32,000 nt of DNA from Candidatus Saccharimonadota bacterium (GTDB taxonomy: Bacteria; Patescibacteriota; Saccharimonadia; Saccharimonadales; Saccharimonadaceae): the NCBI GenBank assembly GCA_023898645.1, contig CP060232.1, positions 780,001 through 812,000 of the forward strand. The letters run 5' to 3'. Under the pieces are notes generated by a model. The model ran no database searches. It had not been told where the DNA came from and saw only the letters and a program-made list of their open reading frames with translations. The first letter of the stretch is position 1. Every line of letters begins with the position of its first letter. Shown here in pieces: positions 5,497 to 11,252 of this stretch. A program made the position numbers and the translations under genes.

Positions 5497-5571
5497 GGCC
5501 TTATCGTCTAACGGTTAGGACATCAGGTTCTCATCCTGGCAATCCGGGTTCGATTCCCGGTAAGGTCACCA
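5497..5571 (+). tRNA. tRNA-Glu (anticodon CUC), CCA encoded
   Basis: Manual cloverleaf: acceptor GGCCTTA/TAAGGTC (one G-U pair), D arm GTCT-AACGGTT-AGGAC as in bacterial tRNA-Glu, anticodon arm TCAGG-TTCTCAT-CCTGG, T arm CCGGG-TTCGATT-CCCGG, discriminator A, then CCA. Confidence 0.9.
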
Positions 5572-7144
5572 AATCGGAACTAAAACGGAAACGGTCGCCC
5601 TGTCGGGCGGCTTTTTCGGTGGCGGCGCGGAGCGCCTGCCAGCGGTTTTTCAGGGGGGGGATAAGAAATTGGTCGTCATTTATGACGACTTCTTTTTGTC
5701 GCATTTGTAGGTTCGACCCGAAGATTTCGAGTAAGAGCGACTTTTTCGCTAGTAAGTCATCACTTTTTGCAATTTTACAGATAGAAACGGCAGTTTCTAT
5801 CCATTGTTTCATCGGTTCGACCCACGTCGAAACGCCAAGTGCCGTTTGCTCGATTTGCTCCTGCAAAAGTTTCTTTTCGCCCAGTATTTCGGCTCGCTTG
5901 GCTTGGTATAGTTCGCGCTCCACGTCGCCGTCTAGGTAACTATCAAGCAGACGCTGCAACTTTTCGGACAGCTGCGCGATACTAGCTTGCAAGGCTTTAG
6001 TTACGGTCGCATATTGGGTCTGCTCTTTGGCTTCGTCCTCACGTATCAGGTCGCGCAGCTTGTCCGCCCACGCGGTGGGCATAGCGTAGCTCTGTAGTAA
6101 TACAGACACTTGCTTGTCCAGCTCCTCGGCTCTGATGTGCGGCTCTCGGCAAGCTACTGTTTTGCTCTTGCGAGTACAGCGGTAGTAGGTATAGACATGT
6201 ACATTACCGTTTTTCTGCCGCTTTATGCGTGTTTCTGCGGTAAACATCATACCGCACGAGCAATACACCGAGCCGCACAGTGGCTGGGGGTTGTTGGCTT
6301 TTCTGGTTGGTTTGCCGCGCTGGTGTAAGACAGCTTGCACCTTGTCGAATAGCCGTTTTGAGATAATACCCGTATGCTTGCCCTCATGGACTTCGCCAAG
6401 ATACAGAAAATGTCCATAGTAAAACGGATTTGATAGCATACGCGTTACGCGAGTGCGCGAGTGGGGTTTGCCTCCTGTGGTCTTTTTGCCACGTATCATG
6501 CCTTGTTTTGTTTGTATGCCATTGGCATACAGAAAGTCGGCGATTTCGTCTAATCGTTTATCACCGCGAGCATACAGCTCGAACGCCCCCTGCACGATCG
6601 GCGCAGTCTTGCGGTCAATCTTTATGGTTTTTGTTCGCAGGTCGTTATAGTAACCGAGCGGTGCGCCTCGTGGGTAGCGTCCGTCGCGTACCATTTGCCG
6701 CAAGCCTCGTTTGGTATTGAGCGATAGGTTATCGACATACTGTTTAGAGGCGTTAAACTCATTGGCAAGCATATATTTGCCTTGTGGCGTGTTCTCGAAC
6801 CAAAAGTGCGGAAACTTTAAGTCAATCAGCACATACTCATCGAGCATGTAAATAATCTTGCCGCTATCTATACTATTACGAGAAAGTCGGTCAGGCATCC
6901 ACGCTAAAATCCCGTTAGCCTCGCCAGCCTCTATGCGTTCTAGCATTTTGTTAAACTTCGGACGCCCTGGCTTTTTCGCTGTTTGTTTTTCTATAACCGT
7001 CTCGATAATATGTACGTCCATACGATCAGCAAACTCTTTGAGTTCGGTAATCTGCGCCGCAATGGACAATACCTGTTTATCTTCTACGTCCGTACTCTTG
7101 CGGACATACAAAAAATATATAAGTTTTTGCGCGATAGGTAACAT
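5531..7144 (-). CDS. large serine recombinase (resolvase/invertase N-domain + recombinase domain + zinc ribbon + coiled coil)
   Basis: The ATG at 7144 lies 5 nt after GGAGGG; the track start at 7201 has no RBS. N-terminal YVRKSTDVEDKQ...PDRLSRN catalytic domain, a Cys-rich CGSVYCSCG...YYRCTRK ribbon and a long helical C-terminus. The 3' end reads through repeat A1 and stops inside the tRNA-Glu anticodon loop. Confidence 0.9.
   Translation of the reverse strand: MLPIAQKLIYFLYVRKSTDVEDKQVLSIAAQITELKEFADRMDVHIIETVIEKQTAKKPGRPKFNKMLERIEAGEANGILAWMPDRLSRNSIDSGKIIYMLDEYVLIDLKFPHFWFENTPQGKYMLANEFNASKQYVDNLSLNTKRGLRQMVRDGRYPRGAPLGYYNDLRTKTIKIDRKTAPIVQGAFELYARGDKRLDEIADFLYANGIQTKQGMIRGKKTTGGKPHSRTRVTRMLSNPFYYGHFLYLGEVHEGKHTGIISKRLFDKVQAVLHQRGKPTRKANNPQPLCGSVYCSCGMMFTAETRIKRQKNGNVHVYTYYRCTRKSKTVACREPHIRAEELDKQVSVLLQSYAMPTAWADKLRDLIREDEAKEQTQYATVTKALQASIAQLSEKLQRLLDSYLDGDVERELYQAKRAEILGEKKLLQEQIEQTALGVSTWVEPMKQWIETAVSICKIAKSDDLLAKKSLLLEIFGSNLQMRQKEVVINDDQFLIPPLKNRWQALRAATEKAARQGDRFRFSSDLVTLPGIEPGLPG
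5567..5699 (+). repeat. inverted repeat A, left copy (A1)
   Basis: 5567-5651 is identical to the reverse complement of 7360-7444. The outer 48 bp are diverged, with a substituted hairpin but conserved flanks. Confidence 0.9.
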
Positions 7145-7177
7145 ACAACCCTCCCAACTTAAAAGGCTACTCCGCTT

Positions 7178-7276
7178 GGAAAACAATTCAGCATACGCCA
7201 AATAGTTGCGAAGTAGCCGTTTAAGCCTACAAAAATAGCATATGCCTTGAATTGTTTTCCATTTATCAGTATACCA
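7178..7276 (-). promoter_or_regulatory. recombinase promoter and leader inverted repeat
   Basis: Minus-strand extended -10 TGgTATACT (7268-7276). A 13-bp perfect inverted repeat ggaaaacaattca / tgaattgttttcc (7178-7190, 7248-7260) lies between the -10 and the RBS. Confidence 0.4.
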
Positions 7277-7312
7277 CGCTACGGACGCGGAGCGTGTCGG
7301 CTATGCCGACTA

Positions 7313-7444
7313 ACAAAAAGAACCATGCCGTAGGCATGGCAATTTCTTACCTCCCCCCAGAAAAACCGCTGGCAGGCGCTCCGCGCCGCCACCGAAAAAG
7401 CCGCCCGACAGGGCGACCGTTTCCGTTTTAGTTCCGATTTGGTG
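7313..7444 (-). repeat. inverted repeat A, right copy (A2)
   Basis: Reverse complement of A1. Shares the 6-bp core ttggtg (7439-7444) with B1. Confidence 0.9.
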
Positions 7445-7613
7445 CGATTTTACGCCGAAGTCCGAACCGATTTCCGAGAAAATCCCTAAGCTCAGCCCCG
7501 ACGCCTGCGGGCGCACGCGCCCGCTCGCCCCACCAGAAAAACCCTTTGCCTATTTTTTTATTTTTCCCCGCCGAATTTCTTTTTTGAAACTGAAAAGGGT
7601 GTTTTCTGGTGGT
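7439..7613 (+). repeat. inverted repeat B, left copy (B1)
   Basis: 175 bp whose reverse complement matches 11013-11187 at every position I compared. Confidence 0.9.
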
Positions 7614-7870
7614 GGCGATTATCTGCATCTATTGCCTAGCAAAAATACGGTGTAAATAGTACAATCATGACAAGCATTTATGCTAGACCTAAACCAAACG
7701 CAAGTTTGGCATGGTCGTCAAATCAACAAAGAGAAACAGCTCGTCATGAGTACTTCTCTTTGTTGTCATTGCTGGAAACGGCAGTGGGTAGCTCTCGGGC
7801 TGCCGCTCGTGGCGGGCTTTTTGGTTCGCTACATCCATTCAACAAAGTATAGCAATAGGAGACCAGCGAC

Positions 7871-8416
7871 ATGACAGAAAATAGTAAAATGGAACAATCG
7901 GAGAGTCAGGGGCTTGCGATAGCATCGTTAGTTCTTGGTATTCTGGCAATTATTACTTGCCTAGTGCCGTATATCAGCATAGCTCTTGGAGTTATAGCGA
8001 TTATTCTTGGTGTAATTTCTGTCAAAACGAAGGGTCGCAAGAAGGCAATTTCAGGAATTGTTACGGGAAGTGTCGGAGTGGTTTTAGCTATTATCGTGTC
8101 CGTCATGACTTTCGTAGCACTTCCAGCTCTACAAAAAAATCAACGTGACACAGCACGCAAAAATGATGTAAGCATAGCGTCTAGTGCGGTTGCTACATAT
8201 TCGTCAAATAATCGTGGACAAATGCCAGATAGTGCTGTTGATTTAAGCCAATATATTACCGACCTAACTCTTATATCAGTTGAAAGCGAAGGCACGCCGA
8301 CAACCGACACGGCTATTTACAAAAAAGGTGCGAACTGCGATGGAACAGCCTCAGGTCGTGCATATGCAATAACAGTGCTCCTAGAAAACGGCTCAGAGTA
8401 CTGTCAGGGGTCATAG
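7871..8416 (+). CDS. membrane protein: DUF4190-like TM pair fused to a type IV pilin-like globular domain (no prepilin cleavage motif)
   Basis: AGGAGA RBS. QGLAIASLVLGILAI...GVIAIILGVISV is DUF4190-like. The third helix plus LPALQKNQRDTARKNDVSIASSAVATYSSNNRGQMP resembles the pilin alpha1-C region. There is a C-terminal Cys pair (NCDG...EYCQGS). Confidence 0.6.
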   Translation: MTENSKMEQSESQGLAIASLVLGILAIITCLVPYISIALGVIAIILGVISVKTKGRKKAISGIVTGSVGVVLAIIVSVMTFVALPALQKNQRDTARKNDVSIASSAVATYSSNNRGQMPDSAVDLSQYITDLTLISVESEGTPTTDTAIYKKGANCDGTASGRAYAITVLLENGSEYCQGS

Positions 8417-8422
8417 AATACG

Positions 8423-9097
8423 ATGGAACGATTTTTCACCGGACTTATTACAACACTCAGCATACCTATTCTTCTGCTAAACGTTTTAGGCGGTATCATC
8501 GGGGGTATTTGGCTCATGGTTGCCGGTGAGTGGTCATTATTCATAGGCGGCTTACTCTACATGATGTTTGGTGCAATGATTATCGGTCTATTTCTTATGC
8601 CTAGCTTACTTTTTGCCGCACCAGCGGCAGCATTTGCTGAAAAGCGCAAATACGTGCTGTTTTTCATCTTTGGCTTGCTTGGGATTGCATACACCTATGG
8701 ACTTATTGCGGTATCTACATACTACGTTGCGGATATTGCCTTGAGTTCTCAATCTGCGCCACTTTGGGCAAGTCTACTGTGGCTTTATGCGGTAGTTCTT
8801 GCGCCGTGGCAATATATGGCTTCAAAAGAACAAGATAACACCTCAACAGGTATGACAACATTCTTTCTTGCGCTTGGTGTTCTCGCATTGATGGTTTGCA
8901 TTGGCATATTTGGCATGACACTTGGTCAGGCATTTCCTGTGCTTGTTGTAATCCTTGTAATATCTCTGGTTATGCAATTGCTTTTCACTTACGCGCTTAC
9001 TCGTGCCGAGAAACAAGCGACTCGACACGAAGATGGAGATGTCATAGATATTGAACAGACAGACGACAATAAACGAACTTGGGGAGATTTAGAATAA
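8423..9097 (+). CDS. multi-pass membrane protein, unknown function
   Basis: 224-aa ORF with about six hydrophobic helices. Its stop overlaps the next ATG (TAATG). Confidence 0.6.
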   Translation: MERFFTGLITTLSIPILLLNVLGGIIGGIWLMVAGEWSLFIGGLLYMMFGAMIIGLFLMPSLLFAAPAAAFAEKRKYVLFFIFGLLGIAYTYGLIAVSTYYVADIALSSQSAPLWASLLWLYAVVLAPWQYMASKEQDNTSTGMTTFFLALGVLALMVCIGIFGMTLGQAFPVLVVILVISLVMQLLFTYALTRAEKQATRHEDGDVIDIEQTDDNKRTWGDLE

Positions 9098-9915
9098 TGC
9101 AACTTCCACACTCAAAAACTCGTCAAACGTATATAGATCAAATTAAAGTCGTCGAGGCGAACCTCAAAGACGCGACATCTGGCGAGAAAGACAAGGCGTT
9201 ACTTGCTCAAGTGCAAAAACGACTCGATTCTCTGGCTGAAAAATATCAATTTAGCGAAGAAATTGGCACAGCAAGATACAAGCTCTACGAATTGCAGGCG
9301 TTAGTTCATTATTTTAACGGTCATGACGATGACGCACTAGATTTTATCAATCAAGCCATAGATACGCGCGGCGAAACATATGCAAAAGCAGAAAAAATCA
9401 AACAGCGATTATCACTTGGCGACTCTCATGTTACAAAAACTGTAAATCCCGATAAAATTACGAAAGAACAGCGACGCGAACAAAAAATTGGGCTTGAAGG
9501 TTGGTTGGCGCTTTTTACCGTCGGCATTATCTTAGCCGTAGTTCTTCACTTAGTGGCTGTAGGTTTTGGATTTTATAATTTAGGCAACCTAGGTAATACA
9601 GCTGATGACTTTGCAGCCAGCTTACTTGGTCCTTACTATACTTTCTTAATGCTTGCTTCGTTTGCGATGGCTTCTCTATCTGCTTGGCTACTATACTTAC
9701 TGTTTAAGTGGAAGCGATTAGCTCGCTGGGTCGGTATTATTCTACTCTCGCTATCAATACTGATATACTTCATCGATTATATGTGGTATGCAAATCTAAT
9801 GTCCCAGATATCTGGACTTGACCCCCAAAGGGGTGACGCTAGCGTAGGTTGGGCTATTGTATGGATAATATATCTCTGCGTTTCAAAGCGAGTCAAAAGG
9901 ACGCTCACGAAATGA
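9097..9915 (+). CDS. membrane protein with a soluble helical N-domain and a 4-TM C-domain, unknown function
   Basis: The ATG at 9097 is preceded by GGGGAGA. The track start at 9079 overlaps the upstream gene. The GWLALFTVGIIL... TM region is DUF2569-like (low certainty). Confidence 0.55.
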   Translation: MQLPHSKTRQTYIDQIKVVEANLKDATSGEKDKALLAQVQKRLDSLAEKYQFSEEIGTARYKLYELQALVHYFNGHDDDALDFINQAIDTRGETYAKAEKIKQRLSLGDSHVTKTVNPDKITKEQRREQKIGLEGWLALFTVGIILAVVLHLVAVGFGFYNLGNLGNTADDFAASLLGPYYTFLMLASFAMASLSAWLLYLLFKWKRLARWVGIILLSLSILIYFIDYMWYANLMSQISGLDPQRGDASVGWAIVWIIYLCVSKRVKRTLTK

Positions 9916-10289
9916 CGCAGCACAAAGAAAACTATTCATGGATTTATATCGGGCTTGCAATACTTATTGGCGGCACGATTCTGTATTTCCTCTTTTTCTC
10001 ACCTAGTTCTGGCTACGTCAAAATCAAATATCGTGATGACAAAGTAAATATTTCAGCAAGTAACTTTGAACCTCTCAATAAATCAGACTCAACTGTTAAA
10101 GGTGCATGGTACGACGGTAACAATGAATATATGGTTATAAAGTTGAATGGCACATATTATCACTATTGCGGTATGCCAAGCAGCGCATGGCGCAACTTTT
10201 CATCTTCAAGCTCGCTTTATTCTGCCTACCAAGACGACATCAAAGGCAATTTTGATTGTCGTGTAAATCCTGTACCGAGTTATGACTGA
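9912..10289 (+). CDS. membrane-anchored KTSC-domain protein
   Basis: ATGA overlap with the upstream stop. One N-terminal TM helix. VKGAWYDGNNEYMVIKLNGTYYHYCGMPSSAWRNFSSSSSLYSAYQDDIKGNF fits the KTSC domain pattern. Confidence 0.6.
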   Translation: MTQHKENYSWIYIGLAILIGGTILYFLFFSPSSGYVKIKYRDDKVNISASNFEPLNKSDSTVKGAWYDGNNEYMVIKLNGTYYHYCGMPSSAWRNFSSSSSLYSAYQDDIKGNFDCRVNPVPSYD

Positions 10290-10603
10290 TGAAAAATAAT
10301 ATTTCGATCAACAAGTTTTTACTCATCGGCTTGATTGCCGCCGCGTTAGCTGGTGGCAGCTACGCAGGCTTTTACTACACTAGCCAACATTACGAGGCAA
10401 AGGAAAGCGCAAGGCTCGCACAGGAAGAAGAAACCGACCGCAAGAACTTGATTTGCGAAGCTCGAGTGCAACGCGGTAAAACAGGCGACGTTAAAAGTGA
10501 CTATTTCATTTTTGAGCGGAGCGAAAAAGAGGACGATTGCAAAAGGTTTATAGAGTATAAGAATATACCCGATGATACCGAGGGATTTTGGCTAGGGTTT
10601 TAA
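10289..10603 (+). CDS. small membrane-anchored protein, unknown function
   Basis: The ATG overlaps the upstream TGA. N-terminal TM helix and a charged C-terminal domain with two Cys. Confidence 0.55.
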   Translation: MKNNISINKFLLIGLIAAALAGGSYAGFYYTSQHYEAKESARLAQEEETDRKNLICEARVQRGKTGDVKSDYFIFERSEKEDDCKRFIEYKNIPDDTEGFWLGF

Positions 10604-10612
10604 GGAGATAAA

Positions 10613-10924
10613 ATGAATTTACCGAAAGACAGCGCACATAAAACAAAACATCACGAACCAAAGCGACAGACTTGGGTCGCTGTTCTGGCGATTATCGCTA
10701 TTGTCATTAGCGTGGCTAGTGCTGGTTTTTCGGCGTTAGTATATTTCAATACACCGCTTCAAATCAATAACTATGTACAATCACACAAAGACGAATTAAA
10801 GGGTGCAGACGGTCAAGATGGGCGTGATGGTATGGATGGTCGCAATGGCTCAAACAGCTACTCTCCGACTCACTGTAGTAGCTATGATTATGGCTACGGT
10901 TATTCGTCAACTAATTGTTATTAG
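10613..10924 (+). CDS. small membrane-anchored protein with a collagen-like G-X-Y run
   Basis: AGGAGA RBS. One TM helix, then six consecutive G-X-Y triplets GADGQDGRDGMDGRNGSN and a Tyr/Gly/Ser tail. Confidence 0.55.
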   Translation: MNLPKDSAHKTKHHEPKRQTWVAVLAIIAIVISVASAGFSALVYFNTPLQINNYVQSHKDELKGADGQDGRDGMDGRNGSNSYSPTHCSSYDYGYGYSSTNCY

Positions 10925-11012
10925 ACGAGGGGTTTATGTGTCGCTTAAGCGACACATGGCGGCTTCGCCGCCTGAGCGAAGCCTCGACGCCTCTGCCATT
11001 TATGGCAGTCGA

Positions 11013-11187
11013 ACCACCAGAAAACACCCTTTTCAGTTTCAAAAAAGAAATTCGGCGGGGAAAAATAAAAAAATAGGCAAAGGGTTTTTCTGGTGGGGCG
11101 AGCGGGCGCGTGCGCCCGCAGGCGTCGGGGCTGAGCTTAGGGATTTTCTCGGAAATCGGTTCGGACTTCGGCGTAAAATCGCACCAA
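11013..11187 (-). repeat. inverted repeat B, right copy (B2)
   Basis: Reverse complement of 7439-7613. Ends in the CACCAA core that abuts the tRNA terminator. Confidence 0.9.
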
Positions 11188-11194
11188 GAAAAGC

Positions 11195-11218
11195 ACCCGT
11201 CATAAGACGGGTTTTTTT
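11195..11218 (+). terminator. intrinsic terminator, probably the original tRNA-Glu terminator
   Basis: ACCCGTC-ataa-GACGGGT followed by a T7 run. Confidence 0.7.
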
Positions 11219-11220
11219 CT

Positions 11221-11252
11221 TGGTGACCTTACGCGCGGAATTGAACCCGGAT
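11221..11252 (-). other. inverted tRNA-Glu-like 3' fragment (not a functional tRNA)
   Basis: tggtgaccttac is the reverse complement of the tRNA-Glu 3' end including CCA. The next 20 nt align to the reverse-complemented T arm with a 2-nt insertion. No 5' acceptor strand or D arm is present. Confidence 0.55.

Follow-up and report, generated by a model that had tools for sequence, protein, structure and literature searches.

A tRNA-targeted integrative element of Saccharibacteria with its attachment core inside the serine recombinase gene and an inverted spare of its own joint

An inverted copy of the element joint beside a tRNA-Glu gene

The window analysed here, a 32,000-nucleotide stretch from a Candidatus Saccharimonadota bacterium (positions 780,001 to 812,000 of contig CP060232.1), contains an integrative element next to a tRNA-Glu(CTC) gene. 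The element comprises a recombinase module and a cargo module. Between the two lies an inverted copy of the joint (A arm, core and B arm) that would form if the ends of the element were fused, and each module is bracketed by near-identical inverted repeats. The core common to the attachment (att) sites lies inside the open reading frame (ORF) of the recombinase. The features that define this layout are listed below in window coordinates.

5497-5571, + strand: tRNA-Glu(CTC) gene, called by ARAGORN and by the Rfam tRNA model (59.9 bits); its 3' end (discriminator plus CCA) is the attB half-site
5567-11187: the element, one copy of an integrative-element family
5567-5572, + strand: attL core, caccaa, overlapping the CCA end of tRNA-Glu(CTC)
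7439-7444, - strand: attI core, ttggtg, at the centre of a complete inverted attP-like site
11182-11187, + strand: attR core, caccaa
5567-5671, + strand: outer A arm, with a P'-type half-site, a terminator and the codons for recombinase residues ~490-524
7340-7444, - strand: inner A arm (A*), an inverted copy of 5567-5671
7439-7613, + strand: inner B arm; besides a P-type half-site and the tail codons it holds a GC hairpin that covaries and a long hairpin whose loop has the invariant motif CCCCGCCG
11013-11187, - strand: outer B arm (B*), a perfect inverted copy of 7439-7613; attR consists of B* plus the native flank
5531-7144, - strand: large serine recombinase gene in its integrated form (537 amino acids), running through the A arm and core into the tRNA antisense strand, with non-conserved tail LVTLPGIEPGLPG
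7145-7339, - strand: recombinase 5' region, with ribosome-binding site gggaggg before the ATG at 7144
7439-7489, + strand: spare recombinase 3' end, in frame with A*, encoding LVRFYAEVRTDFRENP and a stop, the conserved tail missing from the integrated gene

Both repeat pairs were found by a repeat search and by whole-window self-BLAST, with agreeing results. The A-arm pair (5567-5671 and 7340-7444) is 105 nucleotides long and 97% complementary in inverted orientation, with an expect (E) value of 2.0e-45, and the B-arm pair (7439-7613 and 11013-11187) is 175 nucleotides long, inverted and 100% complementary (E 2.5e-89). Together with a 33-nucleotide tRNA-derived match, these pairs are the only significant repeats that self-BLAST detects in the 32 kb, and a perfect inverted match of 175 nucleotides in a sequence of this length is not attributable to chance. 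The three mismatches between the A arms are all distal; past 105 nucleotides the hairpins of the two copies differ, and an identical T-run follows. At the internal site the two pairs have the 6-nucleotide core in common, and 7340-7613 is the exact reverse complement of the joint obtained by fusing the right end of the element to its left end. Judged by its sequence, this internal site is an intact inverted equivalent of attP. The initial annotation of the locus had described a complete inverted attP-like junction with a B arm identical at every position compared, and our analysis bears out both points. Its inverted copy of the left end is also real, but extends over 105 rather than 132 nucleotides, and the 34-mer that it had placed at 7425-7458 is located at 7423-7457.

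We compared the window with related loci, labelled Lnnn, and refer to its own element as WIN. A WIN element with 92-95% nucleotide identity, accompanied by the same cargo operon, is also present at tRNA-Leu(TAA) in L081 and at tRNA-Gly(TCC) in L082. The homology with L082 ends at the cores on both sides; L081 stops inside the cargo, and only its tRNA-side end is visible. These additional insertions indicate that the window element is mobile and has precise ends.

A terminator scan located several hairpins around the recombinase segment, and a further tRNA-like sequence lies beyond attR:

5593-5612, + strand: intrinsic terminator in the outer A arm, facing away from the tRNA
5671-5690, + strand: terminator-like hairpin
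7418-7399, - strand: terminator in the inner A arm
7340-7322, - strand: terminator upstream of the recombinase, which blocks transcription coming in from the cargo side
11195-11212: bidirectional terminator native to the tRNA gene, which the insertion has moved away; located just outside attR, on the non-conserved B' side of attB
11220-11252, - strand: 33-nucleotide inverted copy (91%) of the tRNA-Glu 3' end, ending in ggtcaccaa; a second inverted attB-like half-site or a scar

The first four of these hairpins face inward at the two ends of the recombinase segment, two on the plus strand and two on the minus strand. Two terminators had been named previously, and the scan recovers both of them (11195-11212 on the plus strand and 7340-7322 on the minus strand), with one more in each A arm. 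The 33-nucleotide copy begins 32 nucleotides past attR, and neither ARAGORN nor Rfam calls a tRNA at 11220-11252. Its presence implies that the native locus had two back-to-back inverted attB-like half-sites with one common terminator. In L080, the left end of a WIN-type element joins a similar tRNA-like stub instead of an intact tRNA.

The recombinase gene, its tail and its targets

The recombinase matches the Pfam families Resolvase (PF00239, residues 11-156, E 1.7e-15), Recombinase (PF07508, E 1.9e-13) and Zn_ribbon_recom (PF13408, E 2.3e-7), and its residues 220-432 align to the A118 integrase (4KIS and 6DNW) with E values of ~5e-9 (4.7e-9 for 4KIS). Catalytic-motif residues R15 and S17 are nearly invariant (>=90%) among 38 homologues. 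An AlphaFold2 (AF2) model contains long helices at 357-404 and 410-436, where a coiled coil inserted in the zinc-ribbon domain may lie, with predicted local distance difference test (pLDDT) values of 81-93, in a whole model that is weak (predicted template modelling score 0.39). By these sequence features the protein is a large serine recombinase (LSR). An exact match to the window protein was not found on record.

A point overlooked in the initial annotation is that the recombinase ORF contains the crossover core. The attP core falls 16 codons before the end of the gene, and because attP is located there, integration swaps the C-terminus of the protein, and the internal site amounts to an inverted spare of the last ~50 codons. 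At an internal site, a tandem junction or a circle joint, the ORF is read across the core into a B arm, and in 41 of 54 elements this reading yields a tail of 15-17 amino acids with the pattern LVxFYxxARTxFxxxx. Arg9, Thr10 and Phe12 of the tail are invariant (45/45 elements), the tail codons vary synonymously (CGA 27 and AGA 18, TTT 28 and TTC 17, TAC 34 and TAT 7), and the stop is at codon 17 in 35 of the 45. Six elements have a second TGG (TTGGCTGGGG), and the conserved tail is present in the correct frame in these as well. Read into the tRNA, which is the usual integrated state, the ORF ends in tails of 1-52 amino acids with unrelated sequences. The conserved tail is present in 13 of the 120 best protein clusters, and the others end in tRNA-antisense sequence. 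AF2 puts the conserved tail within a C-terminal helix (residues 522-538, pLDDT 77-79), again in a model that is weak overall.

Tandem arrays (L083, L084, L147 and L183) create B*-core-A junctions. Such arrays at one tRNA are accompanied in our collection by elements on neighbouring tRNAs of one genome (the same four loci, and L068, L069 and L034). An array member that does not touch the tRNA has a full-length recombinase gene, whose tail is restored by the B*-core-A junction. We considered L084 and L183 as circular forms and rejected both: L084 is a tandem array, with B arms at its start and end that are 90.7% alike and a right end that has a tRNA-type terminator flank, and L183 contains a tandem junction.

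The family to which WIN belongs appears to be very large and undescribed. Scans with the recombinase gave more than 547 relatives from genomes and more than 562 from metagenomes, as well as 3849 or more protein clusters, nearly all of them from Saccharibacteria; literature searches on this architecture in Saccharibacteria or Patescibacteria found nothing. The three-site layout occurs in ~130 related elements from independent assemblies, with recombinases that are 48-94% identical, and every one of them adjoins a tRNA gene at its CCA end, the identity of the tRNA varying widely among elements. Fetched loci (79, then 170) were checked by self-BLAST, and 173 recombinase genes were examined. An A pair was found at 126 of the 173, which is an undercount because the filter missed minus-strand loci, and a B pair at 57, on the promoter side in every case (57/57). 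A convergent tRNA is present at the recombinase 3' end in 123 of the 173.

The recombinase lies between A arms of 61-160 nucleotides (median 124), and a variable cargo of 0.76-8 kb lies between B arms of 69-310 nucleotides (median 179). In the 57 elements that have both pairs, the two arms of an element are 100% identical for the B pair in 40 and for the A pair in 29. Arms of different elements differ by 8-25%, and this combination of identity within and divergence between elements points to concerted evolution. The B arms of WIN and L080 are 100% identical, whereas the rest of the element is 93-95% identical, which argues for purifying selection on the arms. Decayed copies were also observed (L023, L024, L038, L113 and L136), some of which are N-terminally truncated recombinase remnants that still abut a tRNA. 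The arms of L136 have diverged to 83% or to a 24-nucleotide trace, as expected of repeats whose maintenance has been lost.

A few relatives (L004, L021, L052, L053 and L068) are binned as Spartobacteria, Acidobacteriota, Rhodoferax, Arachnia or Sphingomonadaceae. Several of these are 2-5 kb in length, and the majority probably represent Saccharibacteria DNA that was assigned to the wrong bin. Arachnia is among the host genera of oral Saccharibacteria.

The tRNAs whose 3' ends are targeted include those for Glu, Leu, Gly, Met, Arg, Lys, Thr, Val, Gln, Cys, Asn, Tyr, Trp and Ser. Within one element, attL, attI and attR are identical over TGG and two further nucleotides (TGGTG, TGGAG, TGGCT or TGGTA). 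This string is the complement of CCA and tRNA positions 73-72, and always matches the element's own tRNA; by this correspondence, positions 73-72 are likely the crossover dinucleotide. In site logos, the chromosomal side of attR is unconserved. The motif TCGAAC starts at x=23 in the B arm of 42 of 46 elements. In the tRNA half it starts at x=19 in 20 of the 22 elements that have the motif there, and 24 of the 46 lack an exact match. The B-arm copy also encodes the Arg-Thr codons of the tail, and its reading as a site motif should be treated with caution. A comparable motif shift, with an offset of ~5 bp, separates the attB from the attP half-sites of the LI integrase.

Natural inversions and the proposed role of the internal site

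Sequence comparisons indicate that both the recombinase segment and the cargo segment invert in nature. The cargo side of the window element contains the following features, of which the Z module has a counterpart, Y, at the other end of the cargo slot in related elements:

7871-10924, + strand: cargo operon of six small ORFs, mostly of membrane type; three match DUF4190, DUF2569 and KTSC, and the other three lack a Pfam match
7686-7804, + strand: LOOT RNA (RF03000), the cargo leader; 75.5 bits in Rfam against a gathering threshold of 46.4, over the full-length model (1-121)
10930-11012, + strand: Z module, three covarying hairpins around GAGGCGGCGCGGCT beside the outer B arm; conserved backbone at the end of the cargo slot

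The recombinase segment is flipped in L170-L177, in which the recombinase protein (P0100) has the full-length tail. Two scaffolds (77 and 92 kb) represent this state, as do several k141 contigs, assembled from different samples with a k above the 105-nucleotide arm, and the order in these loci is tRNA-Leu(GAG), core, A, recombinase (5' to 3'), A*, core, B, Y-cargo-Z, B* and core. L018 and L019 are 91-93% identical to them and carry the same cargo, in the usual order. The recombinase segment of L178 is likewise inverted with respect to L003. Among homology-ranked loci, the usual tail-swapped state was found 113 times versus about 6 for full-length states. As for the cargo, L054 and L056 have colinear recombinases at 90% identity and a cargo stretch of 922 nucleotides, 92.8% identical, that is inverted; L178 and L179 are 100% identical over 1909 nucleotides, and the next 2966 nucleotides are inverted at 99.4%. 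A search of relatives for a flipped arrangement, which the initial annotation had suggested, therefore succeeds for the cargo (L054/L056 and L178/L179) and for the recombinase (L170-L177 versus L018/L019). The functionally meaningful invertible unit is probably the recombinase segment, whose flip exchanges the non-conserved C-terminus for the conserved one encoded at the internal site.

We lean slightly towards regarding these elements as a bacterial serine-recombinase counterpart of the archaeal 'suicidal' integrases, with the addition of an inversion that rebuilds the gene. In archaeal systems of the SSV type, the intact integrase gene serves as the directionality factor, and a 2021 review describes suicidal integrases as exclusive to archaea (PMC8371274). 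The elements studied here disrupt their own integrase gene in the same sense, since the core lies in the ORF and the integrated and free-form genes differ. Serine integrases usually consume attP on integration, whereas a complete attP equivalent persists after integration in the window and in the majority of its relatives.

The proposed sequence of events is as follows. Integration at a tRNA 3' end replaces the conserved tail with tRNA-antisense residues, and in the resulting usual state, exemplified by the window, the tail-swapped recombinase might leave the element quiescent or of altered specificity. Inversion across the A arms would rebuild the full-length gene in situ, and could thereby re-arm the element without a separate excision factor. 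The inverting enzyme may be the recombinase itself, acting on attL and attI, or host RecA, acting on the repeats of 105-139 nucleotides. Inversion of the cargo across the B arms would be a by-product of symmetry and not an expression switch. Ongoing recombination and selection could together maintain arm identity, with the A arm selected for its half-site, terminators and codons, and the B arm for its half-site, tail codons and structured region.

That the internal site exists to rebuild the full gene by a flip of the recombinase segment, without excision, is a plausible proposal that we hold with some doubt. Such a role would explain why both half-sites are conserved, why the core matches, why the tail frame stays open up to a fixed stop and why no directionality-factor gene is apparent. 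A switch role for the tail leads to a more tentative suggestion: loss of the tail, predicted as a C-terminal helix, might disarm or re-programme the integrase, and an A-arm flip might restore the enzyme and license excision or further movement, making directionality independent of accessory proteins. If true, this would be the first 'suicidal' integrase among bacterial serine recombinases and the first with a built-in way back. No second ORF is conserved across the elements, although directionality factors are too diverse to exclude by sequence.

Several observations weigh against this interpretation. No excised circle and no empty site were recovered among the fetched loci, and IMG/VR contains no relatives, for which reason we also rejected a viral origin. 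Canonical LSRs need a directionality factor for excision. The AF2 model is mediocre (pLDDT 66.8). Because the tail codons double as the P half-site, constraints on protein and on DNA are not fully separable, and the codon-position entropy signal in the tail is weak (0.87/0.57/0.83 bits). Inversion was seen by comparing public assemblies, and since the B arms exceed the k of short-read assemblies, cargo orientation in those assemblies rests on read pairs. The tail-swapped state dominates by ~20:1 despite near-identical A arms. Conversely, the flipped full-length state is stably dominant in L170-L177 across several samples, implying that a full-length gene alone does not cause rapid loss. This consensus state also weakens a 'ratchet' that we had considered, in which the flipped full-length state is always transient.

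Comparison with known systems clarifies what is shared and what differs. LSR elements (phiC31, Bxb1, A118/LI, TP901-1, SCCmec Ccr and Tn4451 TnpX) have the same resolvase, recombinase and zinc-ribbon architecture, in which the long helices predicted here may correspond to the coiled coil, a short core at both ends, and asymmetric attP and attB sites; in the present family the motif lies ~4 bp further out in the element half-site. Unlike them, the present elements keep a complete inverted attP inside the integrated form, have the core in the recombinase ORF, target the CCA end of essentially any tRNA that matches at positions 72-73 with the other attB half unconserved, and offer no candidate directionality factor. 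The SSV-type integrases (SSV1, pTN3 and pT26-2) also have a recombination site within the integrase gene, a tRNA target and a gene broken by integration. However, they are archaeal tyrosine recombinases whose gene is split into two large parts, whereas in the Saccharibacteria a serine recombinase has its last ~14-16 residues replaced. No inverted spare copy is known from the SSV type, and the inverted spare end is what is new relative to known split integrases. The Myxococcus phage Mx8 shows a milder form of self-disruption: attP lies inside int, and after integration the gene has a different 3' end and the properties of its product are altered (PMC6070905). That integrase (IntP/IntX) is a tyrosine recombinase of a phage, and has no internal inverted att copy or inverted repeats.

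DNA inversion systems show another kind of resemblance. In Gin, Cin, Hin and Min and in the R64 shufflon (Rci), inverted-repeat segments adjoin or contain the recombinase gene, inversion exchanges the 3' end of a gene, and several sites in alternating orientation yield multiple isomers. Those switches depend on small serine invertases, assisted by an enhancer and Fis, or on a tyrosine recombinase, act at sites of 26-34 bp, and change a gene for a tail fibre or pilin instead of the recombinase gene; they are not integrases acting at att sites. A Hin/Gin-type enzyme has ~190 amino acids, a C-terminal helix-turn-helix and ~26-bp sites, whereas the proteins here have 537-540 amino acids and an LSR C-terminal region, with arms of 105-175 nucleotides. 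The tycheposons of Prochlorococcus (bioRxiv 10.1101/2020.12.28.424599) are likewise small cargo shuttles of a streamlined genome that target tRNAs, form tandem arrays and carry defence or niche cargo. They differ in their mostly tyrosine recombinases, partial tRNA copies at the flanks, frequent replication genes and lack of an internal inverted att site.

A passive architecture is an improbable alternative, although it has some points in its favour. It supposes an ancient duplication that was kept for insulators or terminators and by gene conversion, with inversions as incidental RecA events and a tail swap that is tolerated. The recombinase gene is indeed flanked on either side by A-arm terminators that point inward, the available evidence suggests that inversions are rare, and the decayed elements L136, L055 and L075 show diverged arms. 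However, insulation needs no half-sites, no tRNA-matched core and no 16-codon tail with a fixed stop, yet these are kept in ~45 independent lineages, and between copies of one element the coding sequence has diverged more than the arms.

It is unlikely that the layout reflects a free circle with two inverted repeats of ~280 nucleotides, each with a usable att site, that isomerises, amplifies or integrates either way and of which the integrated form is a version with one attP split by the chromosome. Such a circle would resemble the yeast 2-micron plasmid (FLP/FRT), where two long inverted repeats hold the sites and divide a recombinase segment from a second unique segment; that system differs in being an autonomous eukaryotic plasmid with a tyrosine recombinase and inversion that serves copy-number amplification, and no circle was seen here. 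The geometry fits exactly, and L104, L114 and L115, in which the recombinase reads into the B arm, could be circles or second-site integrants. On the other hand, there is no circular contig, no replication gene among the ORFs and, as noted, no relative in IMG/VR. Equal use of the two sites also predicts recombinase orientations of ~50:50 with respect to the tRNA, in conflict with the 113 to a handful observed, and second-site integration would flip both segments, whereas in L170 the recombinase segment alone is inverted and Y and Z are unchanged.

We see only a slim chance that the elements serve cargo phase-variation, in which the recombinase would invert the six-gene operon between the B arms and turn surface or membrane proteins on and off. 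This possibility draws on near-identical elements that hold their cargo in both orientations, on the membrane-type cargo of the window and on the terminators that the operon would meet in either orientation. However, the probable promoter region and the LOOT RNA move with the inverted segment and stay connected to the operon, which makes an expression switch unlikely. Relative to the backbone, the cargo genes of the 57 elements point in the same direction in 23, in the opposite direction in 23 and in both in 11, yet element pairs that share a cargo protein at >=57% identity have it in the same orientation, with L046/L068 as the sole exception (cargo-sharing pairs overall: 18 same, 5 opposite), and in all seven contigs with the window operon beside its recombinase the orientation is that of the window (7/7). 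Other cargo (restriction-modification systems, leucyl-tRNA synthetase (LeuRS), an enzyme like phenylalanyl-tRNA synthetase (PheRS), ABC-F and AAA_13 proteins) is not typical of phase-variable functions. The initial reading of the locus as a multi-state switch is thus correct in structure, and several isomers exist in public assemblies, but the six-gene operon does not hold up as the regulated unit, given the enclosed promoter region and LOOT RNA, the stable orientation and the unrelated cargo of other elements.

Very unlikely, in our estimation, is a cis-acting accessory site, whereby the internal attP is not crossed over but pairs A* and B with the A arm of attL and the B* arm of attR in a three-site synapse that licenses excision without a directionality factor. 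The lack of a conserved second gene as directionality-factor candidate is compatible with this idea, as are the conserved structure and recurrent ATTTC motifs of the arms and their length, which far exceeds that of a minimal LSR site. It is nonetheless purely speculative, has no known LSR precedent, and leaves the conserved tail ORF and the natural inversions unexplained. We dropped two further candidates: a folded single-stranded DNA substrate like that of CTX phage, since recombination of the fold-back with attB would leave hairpin-capped chromosome ends, and mobilisation by recombination of the internal attP with a second tRNA site, whose predicted chromosomal inversions or joint segment flips misfit the orientation data.

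Many contigs break at the arms, as repeats would cause, and a De Bruijn graph does not fix the orientation of a segment whose flanking inverted repeats exceed k. An assembly chimera, which the initial annotation had mentioned, or a collapsed repeat, peculiar to this contig, nevertheless has a negligible chance of being the explanation, because the same layout recurs in ~130 elements from different assemblers, samples and studies, including scaffolds of >75 kb and contigs assembled with k of 141 or 127, values that exceed the 105-nucleotide A arm, across which orientation is resolved by k-mers.

The gene-rebuilding interpretation bears on questions beyond this locus. Serine integrases are workhorses of genome engineering, and a separate protein normally controls their one-way behaviour. 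If an integrase were governed only by DNA geometry, here a gene divided at its own att site together with an invertible spare end, this would introduce a new principle of control and offer a tool that is compact and programmable. A target that consists of the CCA end of nearly any tRNA gene combines precision with unusual breadth. Self-disrupting integrases would extend beyond archaea. The family is also apparently a major vehicle of accessory genes in Saccharibacteria, organisms with tiny genomes, few recognised mobile elements and very limited genetics.

Cargo, leader RNA and structured modules

Cargo is unrelated between elements, and includes restriction-modification systems, EcoRII, Dam, AAA_13, ABC-F, LeuRS and PheRS-like proteins, and membrane proteins. 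Cargo of the translation type comprises a complete leucyl-tRNA synthetase, a monomeric PheRS-like enzyme and ABC-F ATPases (L069 6583-9006, L010 562-1695 and L055 7856-9472), which could provide resistance or back-up translation functions. When the last cargo protein of the window was looked up, the matches were cargo-only Logan contigs that break at the arms.

The LOOT RNA of the window sits just inside the inner B arm and ends in a terminator-like hairpin (7800-7815); its placement is the same in L058 and L061. We rejected LOOT as part of the core machinery, because only the window, L058 and L061 have it and five other elements do not. This orphan RNA nevertheless gains a genomic context, as cargo of Saccharibacteria integrative elements.

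The Y module is a TGTCGC-TTTA-GCGACA hairpin at the end of the cargo slot. It is adjacent to the inner arm in 11 elements and to the outer arm in 4, and Z to the outer arm in 24 and to the inner arm in 3. The genes between Y and Z may point in either direction.

Past the tail codons, the distal B arms (7490-7613 and 11013-11136) form a structured module of ~125 nucleotides that is conserved throughout the family. It consists of a GC hairpin with covarying stems and GNRA-like loops, followed by a hairpin with a 19-bp stem and the near-invariant loop TTTCCCCGCCGAATTTC. The distal arm has no Rfam match and no terminator signature. We also considered the B arm as a structured RNA, but RNAalifold on a MAFFT alignment gave only 6 pairs because of indels, and forward and reverse folding energies differ weakly (p = 0.036) and assign no strand. 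The B-arm loop of L009 is inverted relative to that of the window. Around 5330-5390 of L019 the outer B arm is absent, and Z is joined directly to ...CTACTGGTG, a structure that points to a deletion from the core to CTGGTGG, a core-like sequence at the distal B-arm end.

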